Source of the DNA: Oscillospiraceae bacterium
GTDB lineage: Bacteria > Bacillota > Clostridia > Oscillospirales > CAG-272
Assembly (NCBI GenBank): GCA_015064525.1
Contig: SVSC01000003.1
Coordinates: forward strand, 1 to 52,389
DNA: 52,389 nucleotides
Reading direction: 5' to 3'
Shown: one piece after another, positions 2,152 to 15,034 of the stretch
Layout of the letters: every line of letters begins with the position of its first letter
Position numbering within the stretch: position 1 is the stretch's first letter
Made by a program: the position numbers and the translations under genes
The notes under the pieces: model-generated
Told to the model about the DNA's origin: nothing
Seen by the model: only the letters and a program-made list of their open reading frames with translations
Databases searched by the model: none

Positions 2152-2180
2152 ATTATACACGGAATTTCCGGGTTTGTAAA
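2152..2180 (-). promoter_or_regulatory. sigmaA-type promoter of cysE-tmk
   Basis: TTTACA-17 bp-TATAAT on the minus strand. Confidence 0.6.
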
Positions 2181-2208
2181 TAGTTTTTCGGAAGTTTTGG
2201 AAAAACAG

Positions 2209-2237
2209 TTGACTTTTTGGGCGCGATATGGTATAAT
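2209..2237 (+). promoter_or_regulatory. sigmaA-type promoter of mntP
   Basis: TTGACT-17 bp-TATAAT with extended TG. Confidence 0.8.
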
Positions 2238-2242
2238 AGCGG

Positions 2243-2370
2243 CGTCAATGAGGGAGTTGCGAGCGCCCCTTGACACAGCAGAAATCCGAAGCTCACGTGG
2301 AGCGTTAAGCGATATGTGAGTTCAGACCGAGATCCGATATCGCCTTGCGGTGTGCGGATTTTTCTTTTTG
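2243..2370 (+). promoter_or_regulatory. Structured 5' leader with terminator/antiterminator; candidate non-canonical metal riboswitch
   Basis: Terminator stem atccg..cggat plus T-tract (2332-2369). Antiterminator candidate agaaatccg (2280-2288). The 5' part matches the start of the yybP-ykoY element at 15239-15257 at 18/19 nt. Confidence 0.55.
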
Positions 2371-2405
2371 TTGAAATCTTCATAAACGGAAGGGCGGAAA
2401 CCGAC

Positions 2406-2993
2406 ATGAATCTGAGCTGGGAATTTTTTGTAACCGCCATAGGGCTTGGCTTTGGACTTGCAATGGATGCCTTTTCGGTATCTCTTGCCAACGGCTTGAA
2501 CGAGCCCTGCATGAAGCCTCGTCGCATGGGGCTGATCGCGGGGATTTTTGCGGGCTTTCAGGGAGTGATGCCGCTTCTGGGATGGATCTGTATCCGAACC
2601 GTTGCCGAAAAATTTTCGCTGTTTCAGCGGGCTGTGCCGTGGATTGCTCTGATTCTGCTCTGCTGGATCGGCGGGAAGATGCTCTGGGAGGGCTTGAAGC
2701 CCGATGACTGCGAGAAGGAGGACTGCTGCAGAAGTCTCACCGTGGGGCTGCTGGTTGTGCAGGGGATCGCAACCTCTATTGATGCGCTCTCGGTTGGCTT
2801 CAACATGGTGGATATGCGGTACAGCGCGGGTATGGCGGCTTTCAGCGCTCTGCTGATCGCCGTGGTTACCTTCTTTATCTGCTTTGCGGGACTGTACATC
2901 GGCAAGAAATTCGGCACCAGGCTGGCAAACAAGGCGTCGATTTTGGGCGGCGCCATTCTGGTTGGCATTGGCTTCTGGATCTTTTTCTCCTGA
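2406..2993 (+). CDS. mntP: Manganese efflux pump MntP family membrane protein
   Basis: LAMDAFSVS and IATSIDAL duplicated motifs, about six hydrophobic segments; start set at ATG 2406. Confidence 0.9.
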   Translation: MNLSWEFFVTAIGLGFGLAMDAFSVSLANGLNEPCMKPRRMGLIAGIFAGFQGVMPLLGWICIRTVAEKFSLFQRAVPWIALILLCWIGGKMLWEGLKPDDCEKEDCCRSLTVGLLVVQGIATSIDALSVGFNMVDMRYSAGMAAFSALLIAVVTFFICFAGLYIGKKFGTRLANKASILGGAILVGIGFWIFFS

Positions 2994-3030
2994 CCACGGG
3001 GCATAAACAATACTTTTTTGCGCATACAAT

Positions 3031-3066
3031 AAAGGGGACCTGCTTTTGAGGGCGGGTCTCCTTTTT
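3031..3066 (+). terminator. Intrinsic terminator after mntP
   Basis: aaaggggacctgc / gcgggtctcctttt stem plus T-tract. Confidence 0.75.
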
Positions 3067-3236
3067 CAGGTTTTTCGGCAAAAATTGCATTTGTAGACAG
3101 TTGCATACGGCAAGAAGCTATGGAGTGTTCTCCCTTTTGGGGCGGAAGATGGGCGGTCGACAGAGGAAAGAATGATAAAATATTGTAAAAAACATGACTG
3201 AAATAGGAAAAAACATCAAAAAAAACGGCATTTGTA

Positions 3237-3265
3237 TTGACTTCTGCGCGGAATTGTGCTATAAT
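3237..3265 (+). promoter_or_regulatory. sigmaA-type promoter of the sipW/tasA-like operon
   Basis: TTGACT-17 bp-TATAAT with extended TG. Confidence 0.75.
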
Positions 3266-3332
3266 ACATGATGAGAAACCATCAATTGGTGGATCTGTTC
3301 TTGAAACGACCTTTTATAGAAGGAGGATTCGG

Positions 3333-3839
3333 ATGAATCGTAGGCTGGCATATATTCTGATCGCGGCAATGAGCTTGATGATCGTGGTTGGCATCGTGCT
3401 CTCCGTGCTTTATTACAAGTCTAACGCGGGCAAGGTGGTCGACGATCTGGATTTGAGCGTTACCATCGGAGATCAAACCACAACGAATCGGGAGTTTAAG
3501 CTGGAGAAGCTCATTCCCGGCTCCTCCACGGAATACACCATGCATATCAATGCGAAAAAGCAGGATACCTACGTAGTCACCCTGGATTTCAACGAGCTGA
3601 AGGACAACGGCTTGAAATCGTTGGTGAACGTTCGGTTGATGCTGGGGGATATCCCCATGTATGAGGGAACTCTGGAGTCGCTGCTGGCAGATGGCACCAC
3701 GGTCACCTTTGAGTGCGCACCCTCCGACGACAACAAGGTGTCAATGAAGGTGATCTACTCCATGAGTGTTGACGTTGGAAACGAAGCCATGGGCGCATCC
3801 GCTGATTTCCTTGTGACCCTGACCTCTCAAGCGAAGTAG
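3333..3839 (+). CDS. Membrane-anchored TasA/CalY (camelysin)-like protein
   Basis: AGGAGG RBS; N-terminal TM helix; LIPG and GNEAMGASADF motifs like CalY; no SipW-type T(F/Y)A cleavage motif. Confidence 0.6.
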   Translation: MNRRLAYILIAAMSLMIVVGIVLSVLYYKSNAGKVVDDLDLSVTIGDQTTTNREFKLEKLIPGSSTEYTMHINAKKQDTYVVTLDFNELKDNGLKSLVNVRLMLGDIPMYEGTLESLLADGTTVTFECAPSDDNKVSMKVIYSMSVDVGNEAMGASADFLVTLTSQAK

Positions 3840-3850
3840 GAGTGAAAGCT

Positions 3851-4777
3851 ATGGGTACCGTGAAAAAGACAAAAATCAAAAAAATCGTTGGCATTGCCTG
3901 CAACGTTCTGCTCTACCTGTTCTTGGCGATCGCGATTATTTCCTTGGTAATGTCCCTGATCTCCAGAGACGATTCGGGAGACGGAACCGCCACGCTGTTC
4001 GGCTATCAGATGCGATTGATCGTTTCCGACTCGATGGGCGAATGTGAGGCAACCGACGTGAGCCAATATGAGATCGGAAGCCTGCCCGTTCGCACGATGG
4101 TCTTTGTTGAGACCGTTCCTGAGGACGAGGCAGAGGCGCAGGAGTGGTATGCTTCCCTGAAAAAGGGCGACGTGCTAACCTTCCGCTATACCTACACCAC
4201 GCAGGTTACCATTACCCACCGTATCGTGGACATTTACGCCAAGGAATCCGGTGGCTATATGATCACGCTGGAGGGGGACAACCGAGATTCGGAATCCGAG
4301 CTGATGCAGCAGGTGATCGACACCTCCGCGTCGGGATATAACTACGTGATCGGTAAGGTGACCGGTTCCAGCCGTGTGCTTGGATTTTTCACAAGCCTTC
4401 TGCGGGAGCCTATCGCCCTGGTGCTGATTATCATTGTTCCCTGCGCGATCATCATTGTGCTTGAGGTGATTCGGATCGTTGGAATGTTCCAATCCGACAG
4501 AAGCCGCAAGGAGCAGGAGCAGGAGGACGAGATCGAAGCGCTCCGCCGTCAGCTGGCAGAGGCGCAGAGCCGTCTTACCAATGGGCCCGCGCCCTCGCCT
4601 GATCAGGCTGAGGCGCCTCCCGCCGAGGAGTCCGCTTCCGAGCCCGAGGAGCGGGAAGCCGCAGAGACTGCTGACGCAACGACCTCCGAGGAGGCACCCG
4701 TTACGGAGCAGGAGCAGCATCCCGAGCCCTCCGCTGAGGAGCCCTCCGCCGAGGAAGAAACAAAAGAGGAGGAATGA
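3851..4777 (+). CDS. sipW: SipW-like (S26B, ER/archaeal-type) signal peptidase I with a long acidic C-terminal tail
   Basis: IVSDSM (catalytic Ser), ITHRIV (His), EGDN, VIGKV, flanking TM helices; adjacent genes carry SipW-class signal peptides. Confidence 0.85.
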   Translation: MGTVKKTKIKKIVGIACNVLLYLFLAIAIISLVMSLISRDDSGDGTATLFGYQMRLIVSDSMGECEATDVSQYEIGSLPVRTMVFVETVPEDEAEAQEWYASLKKGDVLTFRYTYTTQVTITHRIVDIYAKESGGYMITLEGDNRDSESELMQQVIDTSASGYNYVIGKVTGSSRVLGFFTSLLREPIALVLIIIVPCAIIIVLEVIRIVGMFQSDRSRKEQEQEDEIEALRRQLAEAQSRLTNGPAPSPDQAEAPPAEESASEPEEREAAETADATTSEEAPVTEQEQHPEPSAEEPSAEEETKEEE

Positions 4778-4780
4778 TCC

Positions 4781-5161
4781 ATGGATCTTGAAAAGATCAT
4801 TATCATATTCGCGTGCGTTGCGCTGGCGCTGACCGTTGCAACCGTCACCCTTTTGGTGGTGGATGCTTATTTCCACAACGGCAAGTTCTACCGCCGCATC
4901 CGCCGCGTGAAAAAGACCAAGCCCGTGAAGGCATCCCGCCCGATGCCGCTTTCCCCCATGAAGGTTCGCCGTCCCGCTCCCGCTCGCGCCGCAGGTCGCT
5001 TCCCCAATGGCGCCATGATCGGTGTATTCGGCGGATTGCTCTCAGGCGTGCTGGTTGCAGCGTATCCCTTCTTTGGAAAAAAGAACAGACGTTGCAGCGT
5101 GTGCTGTAGCGCGAACTGCCGTTGCGGACGTCGCAGAGGAGTTCGCACCTACCGTTTCTGA
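4781..5161 (+). CDS. Small basic membrane protein with a Cys-rich C-terminus (hypothetical)
   Basis: GAGGA RBS, tight coupling to sipW, two hydrophobic segments, CSVCCSANCRC tail. Confidence 0.55.
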   Translation: MDLEKIIIIFACVALALTVATVTLLVVDAYFHNGKFYRRIRRVKKTKPVKASRPMPLSPMKVRRPAPARAAGRFPNGAMIGVFGGLLSGVLVAAYPFFGKKNRRCSVCCSANCRCGRRRGVRTYRF

Positions 5162-5232
5162 TCCGAAGTTAAAGCGCCTCGCGCTTTAATGATAAATGAA
5201 GCCATTTCTCGACAAAAGAAAGGAAAAAAGCC

Positions 5233-5904
5233 ATGACTAAGAAAACAAAAACGCTGTTGCTTTCCACAATGACGCTGATGCTTTGCGTCCTGTTGATCTC
5301 CACTGCTACCTTCGCGCTCTATTCTCAGAGAACCACCATCAGCAACCACCTGGAGGCAGGTAAGTTGGAGGTTGGACTTTGGAGAACGGGCATCAAGCAG
5401 TACACCCTCAACTCCCAGGGATATCTGGAGGAGATTGTTCGCGGCGAAACCGAAAAGACCCCCAGCGAAAAGCCCGTGTTCCAGGATTTCACCGGAAAGG
5501 TTGACGACAACTTCTTCGGTCTCACCGCAGAGAACCTGAAGGCTGTGGTTCCCGGTGCTTGGTTTGAGTCTACCCTGAGAATCGCCAACGGCGGTGACGT
5601 TGCTTTCCGCTACGACGTAACCTTTGAGGGCGTGAACGGTACCGACGAGCTTCTTAAGAAGGTCGACGTCATCGTTACTCCCTGCGATAAGGACGGCAAT
5701 GCCACGGGAGCTTCCGTAACCAGAACCATGTTTGAGCTGGAGTCCGACGGTAAGACCATCAGCTACCTGATGGGCGCAGGCACCGCTGAGCAGTATCTCA
5801 CTGTGAGAGTTGCTTTCTCCCAGACGATCACCACCGAGCTGGATGACGGCGGCGTTTCCTTTGACCTTGTAATCGAGGCAACTCAGTCTGTTGACGGTAA
5901 GTAA
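5233..5904 (+). CDS. TasA/CalY-family protein with SipW-class signal peptide (putative major fibre subunit)
   Basis: Signal ...STATFALYS then N-terminal strand NHLEAGKLEV; VPG, I.N.G and C-terminal EATQ motifs. Confidence 0.8.
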   Translation: MTKKTKTLLLSTMTLMLCVLLISTATFALYSQRTTISNHLEAGKLEVGLWRTGIKQYTLNSQGYLEEIVRGETEKTPSEKPVFQDFTGKVDDNFFGLTAENLKAVVPGAWFESTLRIANGGDVAFRYDVTFEGVNGTDELLKKVDVIVTPCDKDGNATGASVTRTMFELESDGKTISYLMGAGTAEQYLTVRVAFSQTITTELDDGGVSFDLVIEATQSVDGK

Positions 5905-5997
5905 CCCTTCAATCTACATCCGTGCGGCGAGAATTGCTTGGGGCGCCGCTGCAAAAAAATGTTCCCAAGCTGTGAAACCCGAAAAGGAGAACTACCC

Positions 5998-6957
5998 ATG
6001 AATAAAAAAACGTTGTTTTCCTCTGTCATGACCATAGCGCTGTGCTTGTGTCTGATTGCGGGGTCCACGTTTGCACTCTTCACCGCCGAGGACACTGTGG
6101 ATATCGCGGTGACCGCGGGCGGAGTGGAATTGAGAGCCTTCATTCGCAACCATTCGGTGAAGACCTACTGGCTCGGCAACGAGACCGCGCGGGCAGGCGT
6201 GTTCCGCAATGGCGGAACAGCAAGGATCAATGGCGAGGATCTGATCCTCCAAAATATGCTCCCCGGCGATCGTGTTGACGTGACGGTTGATATTCTCAAT
6301 GACAGTAACGTTTCGATCTACTACCGCGTTGTGATGACGGTGGAAGGAAAGCTGGGCGAGGTGCTGGAGGCATCCGCGAACGGAAAAGCGCTTTCCGCAG
6401 CCGTTGACAAGGGGCGCTTGAAGTCCGAGTGGATCCACGTTGAGGCTCCCGTGAACGGAAAGGGAGCCGAGATTGATCCTCTCACCCTGTCGGTGGTGTT
6501 GCCCGAAGCGGTTGACAATGCATACGTGAACGCTCCCGGGCAGGTGAGTATTTCGGTGCAGGCGGTCCAGAGCAACGGCGCGGGAGCCGTGTTCTGCGAC
6601 GGTATTCTCTATTCCTCTGTGGAAGCCGCGTTGGAAAGCGTGCGGTCGGGAGAGGCTGTGCTGGAGCTGGCAGGCAGTGTGAGCTGGGATCCCTCCAAGG
6701 GATATTCCACGGGTGCCTCCGCCATCACCTTCAAGGGGCTGGCGTTTGCCGAGCTGACCCTCGCGGGCAGCGGCGTTGGAGAGCAGAAGCTTTCCACCCT
6801 TCCCATTGCATTTGAGGACATGACGATTATCGACGCTTCCGTGGGCTACGCGGAGAGCGAATGGAACGCGGCATATCAGGCATTCCGTTCCCATGCCACC
6901 TTTGAAAACGTCTCTGTTGTAAGAGGTGACCGTGTGGTCGAAGTTATCGAACAGTAG
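5998..6957 (+). CDS. TasA/CalY-family protein with a short C-terminal extension (putative minor subunit)
   Basis: Signal ...GSTFALFT; MLPGD, I.N.S and QAVQ motifs; extra C-terminal domain after AVQSN. Confidence 0.8.
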   Translation: MNKKTLFSSVMTIALCLCLIAGSTFALFTAEDTVDIAVTAGGVELRAFIRNHSVKTYWLGNETARAGVFRNGGTARINGEDLILQNMLPGDRVDVTVDILNDSNVSIYYRVVMTVEGKLGEVLEASANGKALSAAVDKGRLKSEWIHVEAPVNGKGAEIDPLTLSVVLPEAVDNAYVNAPGQVSISVQAVQSNGAGAVFCDGILYSSVEAALESVRSGEAVLELAGSVSWDPSKGYSTGASAITFKGLAFAELTLAGSGVGEQKLSTLPIAFEDMTIIDASVGYAESEWNAAYQAFRSHATFENVSVVRGDRVVEVIEQ

Positions 6958-6967
6958 GAGCAGAAAA

Positions 6968-8938
6968 ATGAAAAAACGTACATTCTTTACATCCATTCTG
7001 ACGCTCGTGCTGTGTATCTCTCTGATCCTTGGTTCCACCTACGCGCTTTTATCCAGTCGCTATGTGTTTAACATTGCCATTGGGTCGGGTGGTAAGGTGG
7101 ATCTCACCGCATGGCTTCAGAACCTGAAGCTCTATTCCATGGACGAGCCTCAGGTTGACCGATTTGCCAACGGAGGCACCGCCACGGTGAAGGACGGTCT
7201 TCTGGATATCAACCTGATCACCCCCGGTGATAAGGTGACGGTGGAGATCGCGGTGGAGAATCGCAGTAGTGTCAGTTTGAAATATCGCCTTGTGGTGAAA
7301 ACGGAGGGTGAGCTTGCCGCGGCGCTCGTTTGCAGGGTTACCATTGACGGCAAGGATTATGTAATTGATAATACCCATCGCTCCACACCTTGGACGTGGG
7401 TTGCGTCCCGTGCCGCAATTCCCTCGGATGGCAAGCCCCTGGAGCTTTCCATTGAGCTTCCCGAGGAGGTGGAGAACACCTTTGAAAGTCTCCACGCTTC
7501 CTATTCCATCGCGCTGGAGGCAGTACAGGGCAACGCCCAGATTTGGGACGGTACCGCTGAAACCCAGTGGTATGACGGCAATGCAAGTCTGCTGGAGATC
7601 CGCAGCGCGCAGGATCTGGCGGGAATCGCCGAGATTCTTTCCAAGGATGCCAATAGCTTGAACGGCAAAACCCTCAAGCTGATGAATGACATTGATCTTG
7701 CGGGTCACCCGTGGACACCCATTCACATTCAGAGTGGCTCGAATTCCAAGATCGTGATCGACGGTAATCAGAAAACCTTGACTGGTCTTTACGTGGAAGG
7801 AGGCTCGCAATGCGCCTTTATCGGCAGCAGTGATGCCGAGCTTACCATTCGTAATTTGACCTTTAACGGAGCGAACGTTCACGGAACGGGGAACACCGCT
7901 GTGGTGATCGGCACGCAAAAGGGAACCGTTTCGCTGGAAAACGTTGACGTGATCAACAGCACCGTTGCGGGAACCGAAGCGGGCGTTGGCGCTTTGGTGG
8001 GCGTATCCCTTCAAAACGAGGGCGCAACGCTGAAGCTGGATGGCTGTGACGTGAAGAACACGGCTGTGATCGGTCTTCATGCGGTCGGCGCGCTGGTTGG
8101 CGCAACCGGCAGTGCGGATGCCTCCGGGATGCAGGTGAAGAACTGCGTTTCCGAGGCGACGGTGGTTTACACCTCCACCGCAGGTGTTGGCGGCCATCAG
8201 ATTGCCGCAGGCGTTGACGGATACCAAACCGCGGGCTTCACCGGTGAAAACAACACCGAGAACAGCAGCGTTGTGGCAAAAGCTGCCAACGTTCTCTACA
8301 CCGCCGAGGATCTCTTTGCTTTCGCAAAGCGTGTGAACAGCGGCGATGCCATGGCTGGCGAAACCGTTACGTTGGGACATGATATCGACCTTCGCGAGGA
8401 GGCATGGACGCCCATTGGATCGGGTGACACTCGGTTTATGGGAACCTTCGACGGTATGGGACACACTATCCGCAATCTGGACGTGACCTGCAGTGAAAAC
8501 GGCGGCTTGTTCGGAAGGGTTTATCAGGGCGTTGTGAAGAATTTGGTTCTTGAAAACGTTGTGATCTACAGCGGTCGTTATGCAGGCGCCGTTGCGGCCC
8601 AGGCGATTGGCGACATTCTGGATTGCACCGTGAAGAACGCGCATATCGTATGCTATGATCTGAATCCCGACCCCGTAAGTGGCAAGGGCGATAAGGTTGG
8701 CGGCGTGGTAGGCTACGTTGCCGACGAGGGCTTTGGCTCCGAGGTTCGCGGAAATACCGTGACCGACACCTACGTTTCCGGAAACCGTGATCTGGGTCAA
8801 CTGGTAGGTTACGCTGAGAACGGCGTGAACGTCAGCTCCAACGTGGTTGAGGGCGTGATTGTCACCTGCAACGGCTACACCAAGGGTGTACCTGCGGCAG
8901 ACCTGAATATCGGCGGTTCTGTTGGAAACAGAGATTAA
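6968..8938 (+). CDS. TasA/CalY N-terminal domain fused to two GLUG/beta-helix-like passenger modules (putative tip adhesin)
   Basis: Signal ...GSTYALLS; ITPGD, EAVQ; two DIDL...WTPI...DG modules with VGALVG/GGLFG/VGGVVG repeats. Confidence 0.8.
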   Translation: MKKRTFFTSILTLVLCISLILGSTYALLSSRYVFNIAIGSGGKVDLTAWLQNLKLYSMDEPQVDRFANGGTATVKDGLLDINLITPGDKVTVEIAVENRSSVSLKYRLVVKTEGELAAALVCRVTIDGKDYVIDNTHRSTPWTWVASRAAIPSDGKPLELSIELPEEVENTFESLHASYSIALEAVQGNAQIWDGTAETQWYDGNASLLEIRSAQDLAGIAEILSKDANSLNGKTLKLMNDIDLAGHPWTPIHIQSGSNSKIVIDGNQKTLTGLYVEGGSQCAFIGSSDAELTIRNLTFNGANVHGTGNTAVVIGTQKGTVSLENVDVINSTVAGTEAGVGALVGVSLQNEGATLKLDGCDVKNTAVIGLHAVGALVGATGSADASGMQVKNCVSEATVVYTSTAGVGGHQIAAGVDGYQTAGFTGENNTENSSVVAKAANVLYTAEDLFAFAKRVNSGDAMAGETVTLGHDIDLREEAWTPIGSGDTRFMGTFDGMGHTIRNLDVTCSENGGLFGRVYQGVVKNLVLENVVIYSGRYAGAVAAQAIGDILDCTVKNAHIVCYDLNPDPVSGKGDKVGGVVGYVADEGFGSEVRGNTVTDTYVSGNRDLGQLVGYAENGVNVSSNVVEGVIVTCNGYTKGVPAADLNIGGSVGNRD

Positions 8939-8947
8939 CGAATCATA

Positions 8948-8985
8948 AAAGCTCCCCGCACCGTTTTAACGGTGCGGGGAGCTTT
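8948..8985. terminator. Bidirectional terminator between convergent genes
   Basis: aaagctccccgcaccgtt / aacggtgcggggagcttt perfect stem. Confidence 0.85.
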
Positions 8986-9010
8986 GTTAGGTTCTATAAC
9001 TTATGAAGGA

Positions 9011-10747
9011 TCAATCGTCCTCAATTGCCGCGTGACGGGTGTTTACGCTGTGGAAGAATTCGGTGTCGAATTTCTTTTCCCGATTGTAGGTGTAAATGCC
9101 GTTCACCTCTTGCTCCACGTCGGTGAGCTGGGTGTAGCAGAAGCCAAACATCTGGGGATTATCCAAAAGCTGATCGGTGAGCGCCTTGTAGCGGGTTTTG
9201 AATTCCTGCTCGGTGGTGGGAGCGTTGCCGTAGCCCCAGGCGTTCGCCTCGTTGGAGTTGATATCCCATTTGATTCCGCCGTATTCGCTCACAAACATTG
9301 CCATGCCATTTTCGTAGCGGCAGGCAGGATGATTGTGGTGGTGGCGACTGCGCTTGCGGTGATTTTCAATGCACTTGTCCACGGGAAGCGCTGCAACCTC
9401 GGCAAAGCAAGCGGAATCCTGGCTGTAGTCGTGAATGTCATAGATGTCGGTCTCGATGTGGATGCCGCCGCTGGTATCAATGCAGGGACGGGTGGGGTCG
9501 GTGAGAACCGTCATGCGATAGATGGTGCGAAGGATGCTCTCATAGAGGGCTTTGTTAGAGGGATCCCAGGTTTCGTTGAGGGGACACCAGCCAACGATGG
9601 CGGGATGATTGTAGTCCCGATCCAAAATTTCGCGCCATTCGTCCACCAAGGGTAGGGCGCTGTTGGGGTTGGTAAAGTCGATGCCCCAGTTGGCGTATTC
9701 ACCCCAAACAATGTATCCCAAGCGGTCACAATGGTAGAGGAAGCGGGGCTCAAACACCTTTTGGTGCAGGCGGGCGCCGTTGAAGCCTGCCTCCATGGAA
9801 AGGTGGATATCGCGGATCAGCGCCTCCTCGGAGGGGGCGGTGTAGATGCCGTCGGGGTAGAAGCCCTGATCCAGCACCAAGCGCTGGAAAACCGATTTTC
9901 CGTTGATCAGGAAGCGGAAGCCGTCCAGCTGCAGATGCCGCATACCGAAGTAGGAGCTAACGCGATCCTCGCCGTAGGTCAGCTTCAGATCATAGAGTCT
10001 GCCGTTGCCAACCTCCCAAAGGTGCAGCTCGGAGAGGGGAAGCAGCGTTTTTACGTTACCGCCGAGGGGGGCGGAGAGGGTGATTTTTCCAACCGAGCTA
10101 CCATCGTAGAACGCCTCGGCGGTCAATTCTCCTCCACCAATCAGGTCAGCCTCAAGGGCGAGGGTGCTGTTGTGGATATCGGGGGTAAGACGGATCTTTT
10201 TAATGTAGCTGTTGGGAACGTATTCCATCCAAACGGTCTGCCAAATACCCGTGGTGCGGGTGTAGGAGCAGCCTTGGGAGTGATAAGCCTGGCATTGCTT
10301 GCCGCTGCCAATGGTGGTGTCGCGGGTGTTGTCGATGGCGCAAACGCAAAGGCTGTTCACGCCTTCGGTCAAGCCGTTGGTGATGTCCACGGTGAAGGAA
10401 ACGTAGCCTCCCTTGTGGAAGCCCATCTGAACCCCGTTGAGAAAGATCCGAGCCTCATAGTCCACCGCGCCAAAGTGGAGCAGCACTCTGCCGTTTTTCC
10501 AGTCCTCGGGAACGGTAAGATCTCTGCGATACCAAACGCAGTTGAGAAAATCGCGGTTGCCCACGCCCGAAAGGGGGCTTTCGGGGCAGAAGGGAACGGT
10601 GATTTCGGAGGCGAGGTGGGGCTTCTGATAGAGCGCGCGATCTAAGCCGCTGGCGCTCAGGTCAAGCTCAAATTCCCATTGTCCGTTTAAATTGATCCAA
10701 TTCTCGCGTTCAAATTGCGGATTGGGATGTTCTTGTCTTGGAATCAT
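9011..10747 (-). CDS. Glycoside hydrolase family 2 (beta-galactosidase/beta-glucuronidase-like)
   Basis: LNGQWEF, LHFGAVDY, GIWQTVW, RLHQK, WCPLNE (acid/base) and SEYGG (nucleophile) motifs. Confidence 0.9.
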   Translation of the reverse strand: MIPRQEHPNPQFERENWINLNGQWEFELDLSASGLDRALYQKPHLASEITVPFCPESPLSGVGNRDFLNCVWYRRDLTVPEDWKNGRVLLHFGAVDYEARIFLNGVQMGFHKGGYVSFTVDITNGLTEGVNSLCVCAIDNTRDTTIGSGKQCQAYHSQGCSYTRTTGIWQTVWMEYVPNSYIKKIRLTPDIHNSTLALEADLIGGGELTAEAFYDGSSVGKITLSAPLGGNVKTLLPLSELHLWEVGNGRLYDLKLTYGEDRVSSYFGMRHLQLDGFRFLINGKSVFQRLVLDQGFYPDGIYTAPSEEALIRDIHLSMEAGFNGARLHQKVFEPRFLYHCDRLGYIVWGEYANWGIDFTNPNSALPLVDEWREILDRDYNHPAIVGWCPLNETWDPSNKALYESILRTIYRMTVLTDPTRPCIDTSGGIHIETDIYDIHDYSQDSACFAEVAALPVDKCIENHRKRSRHHHNHPACRYENGMAMFVSEYGGIKWDINSNEANAWGYGNAPTTEQEFKTRYKALTDQLLDNPQMFGFCYTQLTDVEQEVNGIYTYNREKKFDTEFFHSVNTRHAAIEDD

Positions 10748-10784
10748 AGTGAAAACTCCTTTGATATGAATAAGATAGACGTAA

Positions 10785-11231
10785 TTATTCGTTTTCTTTC
10801 AAGCTGTCGGCAAAGGCGGTGGCAAGGCGATCGCATCGCTCATTGTAGGGATGCCCCGCGTGCCCCTTTACCCAAACGGTTGTCACCCGATGGAGCTCGG
10901 TTAAACGGAGCAGCTGCTCCCATAAATCGGGATTCAGAGCAGGCTTGTTGTCGCTTTTTTTCCAGCCGCGCGCGCGCCAGGAAGCTGCCCATCCCTTTTC
11001 CAAGGCTTCTATCACGTATTTGGAATCGGAGGTGAGGGTAACCTCGCAGGGCTCTTTGAGGGCGGAAAGGGCGCTGATCACGGCGGAAAGCTCCATTCGA
11101 TTGTTGGTGGTAAGCCTTTCGCCGCCGCTCAGCTCCTTTTCCACGCCGTTGTAGACCAGTACCGCGCCCCAGCCTCCAACTCCGGGATTGCCGCGGCAGG
11201 AGCCGTCGGTATAAATATCAACGTGTTTCAT
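10785..11231 (-). CDS. rnhA: Ribonuclease HI
   Basis: [35 protein letters not shown]...NERCD. Confidence 0.97.
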
Positions 11232-11447
11232 AGAACTTCCTTATCATGGTCATATTCTCACCTATTATATCACATTTTTTCCCTGTTTTCAAGCAAAAAA
11301 AGAAAAATATTTACAATCGAGCGGTCTTTTTTTGAAAAAGCTCTTGCATATTTGTTAATTTTTGTTTATAATAAAGGGGTAGGCTCCTGCGAAAAATCAC
11401 GAAAAAGGCGTTTTTTGAGGAGAATCACAAAAAGAACGGAGAAAAAT

Positions 11448-12341
11448 ATGGCAACCGAAAAGAAAAAGAGAAGATGGCGGTGGGGCGACCGCGCCGACGG
11501 CTATAAGCTTCGTACCATCAACCCCATGAATAAATTCATGCCCTACATCATGCCGCAGCGCTGTGACGCCTGCAATACCTATTCGGATATGTTCGACGTG
11601 ACCAAAACCGATAAGTTTTGCAGAGAGAAGGTTCGCGCCGGAAAAACCAATTTCGGTTTTTTACACATTATGCTTGCCGCGTACGTTCGCGCCATTTCCC
11701 AGCGCCCCGGCATCAACCGTTTTGTGAGCGGTCAGAAGATCTACGCCAGAAAAAATATTCAGATCGTGATGACCATCAAGAAGACCTTGGCGCTGGATTC
11801 TCCCGACACCTGCATCAAGGTGGAGTTCAACCCCGACGACACGGTGGATGAGATCTACGAAAAGTTCAACGCTGCCGTGGTGAAGGTGCAGAACGCCCCG
11901 GAGGATAAGACCTCCTTTGACAAGCTGAACAAGGTGCTTTCCCTGATTCCCGGACTTCTTTGCCGCTGGACGGTGAAGGTTTTGGCATTCCTGGATTATT
12001 TCGGCTTGCTTCCCAAATGGCTCACCAATCTGAGCCCCTTCCACGGATCTATGATCATCACCAGCATGGGATCCTTGGGAATTCGCCCCATCTATCATCA
12101 TATCTACAATTTCGGAAATCTGCCTGTGTTTATTGCCTACGGCGGAAGACGGTCGGTGGTGTCCTGCGATCGTGACGGCAAGGTAAACACCAAGAAATAC
12201 ATTGAGATGAAGGTGGTAACCGACGAGCGTATTTGCGACGGCTACTACTATGCCTCCGCCTTCAAGATCATCAAGCGCCACGTGGAAAACCCTGAGCTGC
12301 TGGACGTGAAGCCCGAGCAGGTGTTTGAGGATATTGACTAA
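11448..12341 (+). CDS. Stand-alone 2-oxoacid dehydrogenase E2/CAT-like acyltransferase catalytic domain
   Basis: P.INRF, GS.IITSMGSLG, C-terminal DERICDG (canonical DHRxxDG); no lipoyl domain. Confidence 0.75.
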   Translation: MATEKKKRRWRWGDRADGYKLRTINPMNKFMPYIMPQRCDACNTYSDMFDVTKTDKFCREKVRAGKTNFGFLHIMLAAYVRAISQRPGINRFVSGQKIYARKNIQIVMTIKKTLALDSPDTCIKVEFNPDDTVDEIYEKFNAAVVKVQNAPEDKTSFDKLNKVLSLIPGLLCRWTVKVLAFLDYFGLLPKWLTNLSPFHGSMIITSMGSLGIRPIYHHIYNFGNLPVFIAYGGRRSVVSCDRDGKVNTKKYIEMKVVTDERICDGYYYASAFKIIKRHVENPELLDVKPEQVFEDID

Positions 12342-12354
12342 ACCAAGAATGAAT

Positions 12355-12386
12355 CGCGCCCCCTCTCCCAACGGAGAGGGGGCGCG
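12355..12386. terminator. Hairpin between convergent genes
   Basis: cgcgccccctctcc / ggagagggggcgcg perfect stem. Confidence 0.75.
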
Positions 12387-12397
12387 GAGCGTTTTTC

Positions 12398-15034
12398 TTA
12401 CTTTTTGATCGCTCTTTGGATCAGCTTCACGATCTCCACAATCGGGATCACAAGGAAGCCAAGCACAGCTGCGATAAGATACTCGGTCAGGTCAACGGAA
12501 ACAAAGCCGAATGCCTTGGCGAGGAAGGGAATCTCGCATACCAGCGTGGTGGCAACCAGGGAGCCGAACGCGGCAAGGTAAAGCACCTTGTTGTGGGTGT
12601 TCATTCTGAGGAGACTGCCTCTCTGAGAGCGCATGTTCAAGCTATGGAAGATCTCGGCCATGGACATGGTGAGGAACGCCATGGTCATGCCGTGGTCGCT
12701 GTTGGTGATTGCCCAGTTGCCTGCCTCCAAGCGGTGTCCCACAAAGTAGGAGATCAGCACCAGAACGGCAACCATCAAGCCCTGATAGATCACGTCGAAG
12801 CCCATGCCGTCGGAGAAGATGCCCGATTTTGCCTCGCGGGGCTTCCGCTTCATCACGTCTGCCTCTGCTTTTTCCATGCCCAGCGCAAGGGCGGGAAGGC
12901 TGTCGGTAACCAGATTGATCCACAGCAGGTGTACGGGCTTGAGAATGGTGAAGCCCATCAGCGTTGCGGTGAAGATGCTGATCACCTCGCTCATGTTGGA
13001 GCCCAGCAGGAATTGAATTGCCTTTCGGATGTTATCGTAGATGCGGCGACCCTCCTCAACGGCGCCAACGATGGTGGCGAAGTTGTCGTCTGCCAGCACC
13101 ATGTCGGCAACGTTCTTGGTAACGTCGGTACCCGTGATGCCCATGCCAACGCCGATGTCGGCGGACTTAATGGAGGGAGCGTCGTTCACGCCGTCACCGG
13201 TCATGGCGGTCACAAAGCCTGCGCCTCTCCATGCGTTGACGATACGGGTCTTATGCTCGGGCTGAACACGGGCATAAACGCTGATCTCGCGGAACTGCTG
13301 CTCAAACTCCTCGTCGCTCATTTCGCTGAGCTGAGAGCCCGTCACGGCGCGGCTGGTTTCGGTCATAATGCCCAGCTCCTTGGCAATTGCCACGGCGGTG
13401 TCGATGTGGTCGCCCGTGATCATGATGGGACGGATGCCCGCGCTGCGGCACTCTACGATCGCGTCCTTCACCTCGGGACGAACGGGGTCGATCATACCGC
13501 ACAGACCCACGAAGCAGAGCTGATTCTCCAGAGCTTCGGGCTCGAAGGATGCGGGCTTTTCGGAATAGGTGCGTTGCGCGCAGGCAAGCACGCGAAGCGC
13601 CTTGTCTGCCATGCTCTTGTTAGCGTTTAGAATCTCGGCGGCATACGCCTCGGTCATGGGAGTGGGCTTGCCGTCCTTGAGATAGTGGGTGCAAAGGCCA
13701 ACCACCACGTCGGGCGCGCCCTTGGTGAACTGAATGAAGGAGTCGTTGTCGGCGTGAACGGTGGACATCATTTTTCTTCCCGAATCAAAGGGAGCTTCTC
13801 CGCAGCGGGGGAGCTTGCCCTTCAGGTCGTTCTTGTTGAGGCTCAGCTTATTTGCCCAAGCAACCAGAGCCGCCTCGGTGGGCTCACCCGTCACGTTACC
13901 GTCGTTGTCCAGCTCGGCGTCACAGCAGAGCGCCATAGCGGTTGCCAGATGATTTTCGTCCTCGCCAAAGCGGTCTACCACCGTCATTTTGTTTTGGGTG
14001 AGGGTACCTGTTTTGTCGGAGCAAATGATCTGCGCGCAGCCAAGGGTCTCCACAGCGGTGAGCTTGCGGATAATGGCGTTGCGCTTGGACATATTGGTAA
14101 CACCGATGGAAAGCACCACGGTAACCACCGCGGCAAGACCCTCGGGAATGGCGGCAACCGCCAAAGAAACGGCTACCATAAAGGAAGGAAGCACCACCTC
14201 GGTAAATCCGATGGTTTCGGCGGTGAGCAGCTGCACGCCAAAGATCACCACGCAGATGCCCAGCACCAGCCAGGTGAGAATTTTGGAAAGCTGACCCAGC
14301 TTGATCTGCAGGGGAGTTTGTCCCTCCTCTGCCTTTGCCAGCGCGTCGGCAATCTTACCCATTTCGGTGTCCATGCCCGTGGCGGTCACCACAACGGTGC
14401 CTCTGCCGTAAACCACGGTGGAGCCCATATAAACCATGTTCTTGCGGTCACCGAGGGAAACGTCCTTGGCGTTGTCGGCAAGCTCGATGACCTCTGCCAT
14501 TTTGGTAACGGGAACCGATTCACCCGTGAGTGCCGCCTCCTCGATTTTCAGGCTGGCATTCTCCAGAATACGAGCATCGGCGGGAACGGCGTCGCCTGCC
14601 TCCAGAAGCACCACGTCGCCAACCACCAGATCCTCGGAGTGAACGATCCGCAGAACGCCGTCACGCAGAACCTTTGAGGTTGCGGCTGACATTTCCTGCA
14701 GGGCTTCGATTGCCTTTTCCGCCTTGCTCTCCTGATAAACGCCGAGAATTGCGTTGATCAATACAACAGCGAGAATGATGATTACATCGGCAAAGCCCTC
14801 GCCCTCATAAACCGCCAAAACGCCGCTGATGGCTGCCGCAACCAGCAGAATGATGATCATGGGGTCGGAGATCTGCTCCAGGAATCTGCGAAGCAGGGAC
14901 TTGCCCTTTGCCGCTGCCAAGCGGTTCTTGCCGTTTGCCTCCAGCCGCTTCGCTGCCTCCTCGGAGGTGAGACCGTTTTCCGTTGCGTTGAGTTGCTTGA
15001 GTACTTCTTCTTTTTCGGTACAGTAGAACTTCAT
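12398..15034 (-). CDS. P-type (IIA-like) cation-translocating ATPase, Ca2+/Mn2+ exporter-like
   Basis: LTGES, IPEGL, DKTGTLT, KGAP, MITGD and TGDGVNDAP motifs. Confidence 0.95.
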   Translation of the reverse strand: MKFYCTEKEEVLKQLNATENGLTSEEAAKRLEANGKNRLAAAKGKSLLRRFLEQISDPMIIILLVAAAISGVLAVYEGEGFADVIIILAVVLINAILGVYQESKAEKAIEALQEMSAATSKVLRDGVLRIVHSEDLVVGDVVLLEAGDAVPADARILENASLKIEEAALTGESVPVTKMAEVIELADNAKDVSLGDRKNMVYMGSTVVYGRGTVVVTATGMDTEMGKIADALAKAEEGQTPLQIKLGQLSKILTWLVLGICVVIFGVQLLTAETIGFTEVVLPSFMVAVSLAVAAIPEGLAAVVTVVLSIGVTNMSKRNAIIRKLTAVETLGCAQIICSDKTGTLTQNKMTVVDRFGEDENHLATAMALCCDAELDNDGNVTGEPTEAALVAWANKLSLNKNDLKGKLPRCGEAPFDSGRKMMSTVHADNDSFIQFTKGAPDVVVGLCTHYLKDGKPTPMTEAYAAEILNANKSMADKALRVLACAQRTYSEKPASFEPEALENQLCFVGLCGMIDPVRPEVKDAIVECRSAGIRPIMITGDHIDTAVAIAKELGIMTETSRAVTGSQLSEMSDEEFEQQFREISVYARVQPEHKTRIVNAWRGAGFVTAMTGDGVNDAPSIKSADIGVGMGITGTDVTKNVADMVLADDNFATIVGAVEEGRRIYDNIRKAIQFLLGSNMSEVISIFTATLMGFTILKPVHLLWINLVTDSLPALALGMEKAEADVMKRKPREAKSGIFSDGMGFDVIYQGLMVAVLVLISYFVGHRLEAGNWAITNSDHGMTMAFLTMSMAEIFHSLNMRSQRGSLLRMNTHNKVLYLAAFGSLVATTLVCEIPFLAKAFGFVSVDLTEYLIAAVLGFLVIPIVEIVKLIQRAIKK

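Follow-up and report, generated by a model that had tools for sequence, protein, structure and literature searches.

Filaments of the TasA type are a major class of surface fibre in Gram-positive bacteria and archaea, and the questions of how they are attached, how their length is controlled and by what means they carry other proteins are largely open. A locus at positions 3333-8938 of a 52,389-nucleotide stretch of DNA from an Oscillospiraceae bacterium bears on these questions. The stretch, referred to as the window, corresponds to contig C27; the genome, with 149 contigs and 2.18 Mb, has an estimated completeness of 81.55%. According to the list of open reading frames (ORFs) of the window, six ORFs, g1-g6, lie head to tail on the + strand in this locus. 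An original prediction, made by a model from the letters of the window, described the locus as a SipW-dependent fibre system with anchor, shaft, minor and tip-adhesin subunits; its observation is confirmed, and its interpretation is partly supported. The reading that is considered probable here is that the operon encodes a SipW-dependent, sortase-independent surface fibre of the TasA superfamily that is held together by donor-strand complementation. From the comparisons and models described below, we infer the cleavage site, the polymerisation, the order of the subunits, the role of g1 as an anchor or terminator, and adhesion.

The first gene, g1 (3333-3839, 168 aa), is predicted to encode a TasA-like protein that is anchored in the membrane by its N-terminus. 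It is followed by g2 (3842-4777, 311 aa), a SipW-like signal peptidase I of the endoplasmic reticulum (ER)/archaeal type, and by g3 (4781-5161), a small membrane protein of 126 aa. Three subunit genes complete the series on the + strand: g4 (5233-5904), a TasA-like protein of 223 aa that is proposed to be the shaft subunit, and g5 (5998-6957, 319 aa) and g6 (6968-8938, 656 aa), which form a second class. The intergenic gaps from g1 to g6 measure 2, 3, 71, 93 and 10 nt in order, and AGGAG-like (Shine-Dalgarno-like) sites are present upstream of g1, g4, g5 and g6.

The N-termini of g4, g5 and g6 are rich in lysine and arginine and continue into a hydrophobic core and a T-F/Y-A-L motif. The SipW-class signal motifs that had been claimed for them (ATFALYS, STFALFT and STYALLS) and the (V/L/T)PG ... 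A(T/V)Q motifs are present in the sequence, and the claimed common domain is borne out as a region of approximately 190 aa with a likeness beyond chance: g5 and the N-domain of g6 are 35% identical over 198 aa (E-value 9e-31), and g4 and g5 are 30% identical (E-value 4e-9). The TasA-like N-domain occupies residues 1 to approximately 195 of g5 (+ strand), after which a C-terminal part of 122 aa gives no Pfam match; in g6, it extends from 6968 to approximately 7552 (+ strand). The signal of g5 scores 19.7 bits against TIGR04088 (SipW-cognate signal), above the cut-off of 19 bits.

An alignment of g4, nine close homologues found by a word-indexed search and the N-domains of g5 and g6 (A2) was used as a profile, which retrieved 6620 cluster representatives at E ≤ 1e-3 and 2183 at E ≤ 1e-10. 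Among 33 relatives sampled from the 150 listed representatives, 25 match PF12389 (Peptidase_M73) at E ≤ 1e-3, 20 exceed its cut-off and 8 do not match it. A sequence search of the PDB with the same profile found AbpX alone (E-value 0.02-0.026). The AlphaFold2 model of g4 has a predicted local distance difference test score (pLDDT) of 84.1, with values below 50 for residues 31-40, and its top Foldseek matches are an archaeal bundling pilus (7ueg, 1.6e-5) and the TasA fibre (8aur, 2.8e-5), with cannula and thread subunits also listed. In VIA-align, 8aur_A is the sole chain at Z ≥ 8 (Z 9.4, root-mean-square deviation (rmsd) 3.0 over 138 residues), and a TasA-like jelly-roll fold of g4 is supported by this model. 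The signal of g4 comprises residues 1-28 (5233-5316, + strand), with the cleavage presumably after TFA, and the proposed donor strand, residues 29-45 (5317-5367, + strand), is the conserved N-terminus of the mature protein.

A relationship of g1 to these subunits is not apparent from direct sequence searches: BLAST of g1 against g4 gives no significant match (E-value 0.77), a word-based homologue search returned g1 itself and one fragment only, and a genome search in relatives added two weak homologues. Profiles were therefore needed. A g1 profile search of 401 genomes, which are a sample of the Oscillospiraceae family, gave matches in 43 of them, 19 of which (this genome included) reach E ≤ 1e-18 and represent 11 genera. 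In the resulting alignment of 20 g1-family members (A5), a basic N-terminus and a hydrophobic helix are followed by the motifs L.L.PGES.EY and VGNEA..A.A.F.L..TA, and there is no conserved cleavage site of the T-F/Y-A type. Comparison of A5 with A2 in hhalign yields a probability of 93.5% (E-value 2.2e-7) over 165 columns end to end; the probability was 51.6% when three g1 sequences were used in place of 20. The g1 sequence is shorter than the A2 profile by approximately 55 residues in the N-terminal part, matches neither TIGR04088 nor a hidden Markov model (HMM) of the first 46 columns of A2, and belongs to a family in which none of the 20 members matches PF12389.

The AlphaFold2 model of g1 (pLDDT 89.7) begins with a helix at residues 3-32, which a short linker connects to a beta-sandwich or jelly-roll ectodomain at residues approximately 38-168. 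Its best structural matches in VIA-align are to monomeric TasA, 5of2 (Z 11.6, rmsd 2.9 over 128 residues) and 5of1_A (Z 11.4), and the next match has a Z of 8.5. At the level of fold, the models of both g4 and g1 belong to the TasA superfamily, in agreement with the TasA-like fold that had been expected for the system. The fourth homologue anchored by a transmembrane (TM) segment, which the original prediction had proposed, is borne out by the profile comparison, the modelled fold and the N-terminal helix; as judged from these models, g1 is a real, membrane-anchored fourth TasA-like protein.

To model a complex, mature g4 (29-223) was paired with g1 (31-168). The ipSAE interface scores of three runs were 0.62, 0.30 and 0.63 (median 0.62), and the best of three controls reached 0.00; the mark of this tool, which the pair passes, is reached by 116 of 157 solved complexes and by 2 of 215 mismatched pairs. 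The runs have at least 70% of their contacts in common, and the partner pLDDT is at least 78. In the modelled interface, residues 30-45 of g4 pack against residues 38-43, 53-63 and 152-166 of g1, such that the mature N-terminus of g4 sits inside the sandwich of g1, beside its last strand. The donor-strand insertion for which modelling had been suggested appears, as a matter of model confidence and not of measurement, in the g4-g1 pair, the one pair modelled.

The conservation of the two proteins was mapped onto this interface. Among 18 g4-class sequences, residues 29-48 form the best-conserved segment of the mature protein (0.72, as compared with 0.45 for the rest), and the residues N38-H39-L40 and A42-G43 of the strand are kept. 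On the side of g1, 7 of 12 conserved positions lie within the 37-residue interface (hypergeometric p 0.016), a value that has to be read with the caveat that buried core positions would tend to fall in the interface anyway. A role of g1 as a membrane-bound acceptor of the strand, which may make it an anchor or terminator, fits the g4-g1 model.

The gene neighbourhood, for which a survey had been suggested, is well conserved. A total of 18 loci were compared, namely the window, locus L013 and 16 loci around strong g1 matches. In all 18, g1 is directly followed by an orthologue of g2 (E-value 2e-68 to 2e-89), and a g4-class gene lies downstream, two of these genes being cut by contig ends. Of the 16 loci that are long enough to show it, 15 have a gene of the g5/g6 class further downstream, and L052 has none in its remaining 2.4 kb; the encoded proteins range from 212 to 964 aa, and their C-terminal passengers are variable and at times missing. 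The cassette of g1, sipW, g3, g4 and g5/g6 recurs in the 18 loci, which represent 11 Oscillospiraceae genera.

The claim of a SipW-type peptidase is upheld by the comparison of g2 with the NCBIfam SipW model NF046067, which aligns residues 21-230 of g2 with positions 5-184 of 189 (E-value 1.7e-14, 53.8 bits), together with conserved Ser, His and Asp motifs. These motifs (SxSM, THR and GDN), the catalytic motifs of ER-type peptidases, contain Ser64 (4031-4033), His126 (4217-4219) and Asp146 (4277-4279), all on the + strand. In an alignment of 26 peptidases (g2, 17 orthologues and 8 second-type paralogues), S64, M65, T125, H126, G145 and N147 are invariant, and D146 is found in all 18 g2-type sequences. 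TM segments at residues 22-40 and 191-209 flank the motifs on the N- and C-terminal sides, and the combination of motifs and TM segments is that of the S26B type. A sequence search of the PDB with g2 returned SEC11 only (E-value 0.56-0.68). Behind the second TM segment, residues 226-311 (4517-4774) constitute an acidic cytoplasmic tail of 86 aa with 26 Glu, 15 Ala and 10 Pro; long acidic tails are also found on the g2 orthologue of L013 and on the second-type paralogue on contig C71.

The remainder of g6 is made up of two beta-helix/GLUG-like modules on the + strand, module 1 at 7565-8290 and module 2 at 8291-8935, which are homologous to each other (26% identity, E-value 3e-7). The matches of g6 in Pfam are under the cut-off (Pectate_lyase_5, E-value 1.6e-4; M26_N, E-value 0.014; and Glyco_hydro_49), and a PDB sequence search yielded nothing meaningful. 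In a feature search of the ESM-Atlas, 25 of 30 matches fall in one family set, the listed clusters of which carry GLUG/PF07581. A wider search of a collection of 5.8 billion proteins identified 309 clusters of 360-1148 aa with a g6-like N-domain, many of them with Beta_helix, Glug or M26_N as precomputed domains; among the 120 clusters listed, one has an informative source name and two more are named only as hypothetical protein.

Ten ORFs in the genome have a SipW-type signal, as detected with the HMM of the first 46 A2 columns, which was built from g4-g6 themselves. Class A, with GSTFALFT-like signals, includes g4, g5, g6 and two proteins of 963 and 672 aa on contigs C146 and C62, and three of its five members exceed 650 aa. 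Class B, with GTTYAWFTD-like signals, includes four proteins of at most 783 aa, one of them cut by a contig end, and a 197-aa protein beside a second SipW. Outside the operon, such ORFs are found on contigs C146, C62, C134, C69, C105 and C76 (L060-L064 and L066), and several of them, 529-963 aa in length, have GLUG or beta-helix regions. The PF12389 cut-off is exceeded by three class-B proteins, and GLUG is detected in two of the large proteins. The presence of two signal classes may mean that each peptidase serves one class.

The mounting of these proteins appears to be independent of sortase, as had been predicted: no LP.[TSA]G (LPXTG) motif is present in g1-g6, and no match to the sortase family PF04203 was found in the genome by a search the control of which was positive in 3 of 14 known genomes.

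How the parts could work together can be outlined as follows. The subunits g4, g5 and g6 would be exported through Sec and held in the membrane by their SipW-type signal peptides until g2 cuts after T-F/Y-A, which would free the conserved N-terminal strand (LYSQ..I.NHL.AG in g4). The freed strand would then be inserted into the jelly-roll of the following subunit, in the way described for TasA and BsaA. As a truncated TasA paralogue with an uncleaved helix, g1 could accept a strand and would have no free N-terminus to donate, and by taking the strand of the last-added subunit it would stop growth and tie the fibre to the membrane; in a scheme of the BsaA type, growth would end, and the fibre would be retained, at a paralogue that accepts a strand and is never cleaved. 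As the repeating subunit, g4 would form the shaft across the wall, and the g5/g6-class subunits would carry variable C-terminal passengers at the tip or along the fibre. The passenger of g6, with its two beta-helix/GLUG modules, is probably binding or adhesive. With growth at the base, as has been proposed for BsaA, the first-made subunits would be distal. The membrane protein g3 has a conserved position in the cassette.

A more specific reading combines these elements and is put forward tentatively, as a possibility that is less likely than the fibre itself. In this reading, g1, having lost its SipW site, would be both the chain terminator and the membrane anchor of a basally growing donor-strand fibre, and the module of SipW signal and TasA domain would be a general, sortase-free plug by which gut Oscillospiraceae mount many large beta-helix/GLUG proteins on that fibre (in this genome, at least five class-A proteins and at least four class-B proteins, the latter served by the second SipW).

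Several results weigh against the reading of the locus as a donor-strand fibre. The complex modelling covered the g4-g1 pair alone, and one of its three runs reached 0.30 only. The test can also be passed by a protein that is closely related to the true partner, and, given the homology of g1 to TasA, the pass may reflect likeness to the solved fibres of the TasA type. The model of g1 has a closed, monomer-like form, and the acceptance of a strand would require rearrangement; additionally, its linker of 7 residues would place the ectodomain at the membrane, and a fibre would have to cross the wall from there. In 4 of the 15 loci, the g5/g6-class protein has little or no extension past the domain of approximately 200 aa (212-235 aa, the 221-aa one being cut by a contig end), and the adhesin is therefore not a constant feature. 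With a genome that is 81.55% complete, a sortase could have been missed.

The family models to which the original prediction pointed give a divided result that belongs with these points: matches to SipW, TIGR04088 and PF12389 are seen, but the curated cut-offs are mostly missed, g5 against TIGR04088 excepted. The score of g2 lies below the curated NF046067 cut-off of 190 bits, and with 35.7 bits it does not reach the cut-off of 51.85 bits of TIGR02228 (archaeal-type signal peptidase), which indicates that g2 is a relative and not an equivalog of the Bacillus SipW. Against TIGR04088, g4 scores 18.4 bits and g6 has no match at E ≤ 0.1, such that g5 alone reaches the cut-off. The scores of g4, g5 and g6 against PF12389 are 14.3, 19.0 and 16.2 bits, all of them under the gathering cut-off of 22.5 bits, and the matches are limited to the signal region (residues approximately 3-49).

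The sole interaction modelled, that of a subunit with g1, would also suit a display without any polymer, in which g1 is a socket and g4, g5, g6 and the large class-A proteins (on C146 and C62) dock on it singly. The five proteins of the genome that have the same class-A signal and N-domain, three of which exceed 650 aa, and the 309 clusters of 360-1148 aa with a g6-like N-domain are what such a display would lead one to expect. However, g4 lacks a passenger and yet no partner is more constant (18 of 18 loci), which fits a structural repeat, and the structure modelled for it is similar to TasA in its fibre form. With a linker of only 7 residues, moreover, a membrane socket could presumably not expose its cargo past the Gram-positive wall, and single docking on g1 is regarded as unlikely.

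The comparison with the tapA-sipW-tasA operon of B. subtilis bears on the fibre reading and on its next competitor alike. In TasA fibres, each subunit contributes its N-terminal strand to the sheet of its neighbour, and the first such strand is proposed to come from TapA (PMC9674648; PMC10151520). The two operons have in common an ER-type peptidase gene between accessory and subunit genes, the jelly-roll folds of g4 and g1 as modelled, with an identity to TasA of 12-13% in the structural alignments, and the N-terminal donor strand that is proposed here. They differ in the extra membrane protein g3 and in the second subunit class with passenger domains of the present locus. Unlike TapA, which is secreted, has a V-set immunoglobulin (Ig) fold and donates its N-terminus, g1 is modelled as a TasA paralogue with an uncleaved helix and is the predicted acceptor.

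The fibres could nevertheless be released matrix fibres like those of B. subtilis TasA, with g1 as a nucleator or chaperone that, in the manner of TapA, starts polymerisation and neither ends nor anchors it. This would agree with the position of g1, which is that of tapA directly upstream of sipW, with the cell association of TapA and its action by strand complementation (PMC10151520; PMC9674648), and with the likeness by eye of the DDLDLSVTIG segment behind the g1 helix to the N-terminal strand of g5, DTVDIAVTAG. The modelled direction of the strand, however, is from g4 to g1 and not from g1 to g4, and g1 has a TasA jelly-roll where TapA has a complete V-set Ig fold; g1 also keeps its membrane helix. 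A nucleator of this kind is considered improbable. That the proteins are not an assembly system at all and are secreted independently as monomers (enzymes, spore-associated or surface proteins) with a common SipW-type leader and N-domain, as the original naming of PF12389 as a metalloprotease family and the likeness of the beta-helix passengers to carbohydrate-active folds (sub-threshold Pectate_lyase_5 and Glyco_hydro_49) might suggest, is very improbable in view of the strongly conserved mature N-terminus, the fold matches to fibre subunits, the predicted insertion of the g4 strand in g1, the tight association, seen in all 18 loci, with genes for a dedicated peptidase and for a membrane-anchored paralogue, and the view, expressed in a preprint, that the assignment of camelysin as a protease is likely a misidentification (10.1101/2024.11.04.621531).

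The BsaA fibres of C. perfringens are also among the closest known systems. The Kivimaki preprint (10.1101/2024.11.04.621531) proposes that a newly exported BsaA monomer, still tethered by the signal peptide, receives the N-terminal strand that is free on the oligomer, and that SipW cleaves this monomer afterwards. It reports membrane anchorage of the BsaA oligomers, for which no anchor protein is identified, and it notes several paralogues per operon in the BsaA/TasA family and suggests heteropolymers. The sipW-bsaA-bsaB-bsaC operon described there resembles the present locus as an operon of the class Clostridia with a SipW and several TasA-like paralogues, and the published scheme already has a signal-anchored monomer that accepts a donor strand. 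Unlike the BsaA system, the present one would use a dedicated, non-cleavable paralogue, g1, as the anchor, has passenger-domain fusions, and has no von Willebrand factor A (vWA) protein, with no sortase gene found in the genome. The exchange-and-lock model of BsaA involves an intermolecular Asn-Glu-Lys isopeptide bond, and Asn38 in the strand of g4 is conserved.

Haloarchaeal Tafi and loci of the AbpX type have a signal peptidase I, major and minor subunits, predicted tips and proposed anchors in common with the present locus. In the AbpX preprint, the loci are described as encoding signal peptidase I and minor subunits together with predicted tips, and the anchors are SLH or LPXTG proteins. 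The roles of the Tafi and AbpX anchors are proposals as well. The locus of the window differs from Tafi in being bacterial and in its Sec/SipW-type signals, which are not Tat signals, and no DUF5305 accessory protein is seen; unlike the SLH or LPXTG proteins cited as anchors of the bacterial AbpX loci, a signal-anchored paralogue is predicted here.

The logic of PapH and FimI in chaperone-usher pili is comparable by analogy only, in that such a protein binds the chain, cannot extend it, and both ends growth and anchors the pilus (FimI: PMC12122975). The proteins are unrelated, the strand polarity is opposite there, and an outer-membrane usher and a periplasmic chaperone are involved; no homology is claimed.

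In light of these comparisons, the original claim of an undescribed system beyond the known models was overstated. The gene order is that of tapA-sipW-tasA, and operons with several paralogues, proposed heteropolymers, tips and anchors have been published, including anchors of TM helix plus jelly-roll and predicted tips, for C. perfringens, AbpX loci and haloarchaeal Tafi. A literature search, which did not cover supplementary neighbourhood tables, found no description of this cassette. What is distinctive is the signal-anchored, acceptor-type TasA paralogue in front of a bacterial sipW, the five-part Oscillospiraceae cassette, and the N-terminal module on large beta-helix/GLUG proteins.

If g1 acts as the model suggests, the cassette offers a simple answer to the question of how TasA- and BsaA-type fibres are ended and held, in that a paralogue with an uncleavable anchor would accept the last donor strand, and g1 would be a Gram-positive counterpart of PapH/FimI in the limited sense given above. 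Large surface proteins with this N-terminal module are numerous in the abundant, uncultured Oscillospiraceae of the gut, in which the present analysis found no sortase, and they are currently unannotated; confirmation would provide a display route for the adhesins of gut commensals and annotation rules for hundreds of proteins.

The third gene of the cassette, g3, was not described in the original prediction. It has an N-terminal TM segment (residues 6-24), a weaker hydrophobic segment (residues 80-98) and a Cys-rich, basic C-terminus, and its residues 31-76 contain 15 K/R and no D/E among 46 residues. A phmmer search found no sequence relatives of g3, and Pfam and NCBIfam gave no meaningful match, the sole listing being FixH (E-value 0.083, 13.3 bits, cut-off 23). 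In 17 of the 18 loci, an ORF with a similar N-terminal TM helix lies between sipW and the g4-like gene, with tails that differ; the motif KMIELTGG occurs at this position in 6 of 18 loci, and the other loci have different tails. The g3-position genes at 10091-10615 (- strand) of L044 and 2166-2702 (+ strand) of L053 encode a TM helix, an acidic linker and a domain like the ribosomal protein uL15 (PF00828; 47.1 and 50.6 bits, respectively, with a cut-off of 21.5). A protein that is uL15-like in some relatives might couple translation or the translocon to assembly.

A second module is present in this genome on contig C71, all on the - strand: a 197-aa TasA-like gene (L065, 2397-2990), a second SipW-like peptidase of 302 aa (1448-2356) and a 181-aa protein with a TWAWFS-type signal (822-1367). 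In 7 of the 18 loci (L013, L044, L046, L047, L048, L054 and L058), the cassette likewise continues with a TasA-like gene of approximately 196 aa, a second SipW and large fusion proteins. The second-type peptidases of the relatives' loci have GTN in place of the GDN of g2 in 7 of 8 cases, that is, Asp is replaced by Thr. By eye, the second SipW on C71 has YGTTTG at the apparently equivalent place.

The single promoter that had been predicted corresponds to a promoter-like site, TTGACT-17-(TG)TATAAT, at 3237-3265 (+ strand), 68 nt upstream of the start of g1. It agrees with the consensus at 11 of 12 positions and is the top promoter-like site within 2900-9300, by consensus match alone; the total of five such sites in the scan is not above that of shuffled sequences (3.1 ± 1.6). 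The sequencing runs listed as containing this DNA include no RNA run; all 16 are DNA runs with faeces or gut metagenome labels, apart from one with a coded organism name and one without a label. At the other end of the six co-directional genes, a perfect 16-bp hairpin at 8948-8985 lies between g6 and a convergent glycoside-hydrolase-like gene on the - strand. This hairpin, noticed on visual inspection, has a folding energy of -39.6 kcal/mol (z -9.6), which none of 200 shuffles equals; a consensus terminator scan flagged no site 3' of g6, and the hairpin has no clear U-tract. It is likely a terminator shared by g6 and the convergent gene, and in this form the single terminator of the prediction holds.

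The regions on either side of the operon (783-2993 and 9011-15034) were named by eye from motifs, and presumably encode a thymidylate-kinase-like protein, a serine-acetyltransferase-like protein, an MntP-like membrane protein, the convergent glycoside-hydrolase-like protein, an RNase H and a P-type ATPase. A mobile or foreign origin of the operon was considered and rejected, as these flanks appear housekeeping-like by eye and the guanine-cytosine content is unremarkable. Within the 71-nt gap between g3 and g4, a 7-bp hairpin (AAAGCGC-CTC-GCGCTTT) is present at 5171-5187, which might tune the ratio of assembly-gene to subunit-gene expression.

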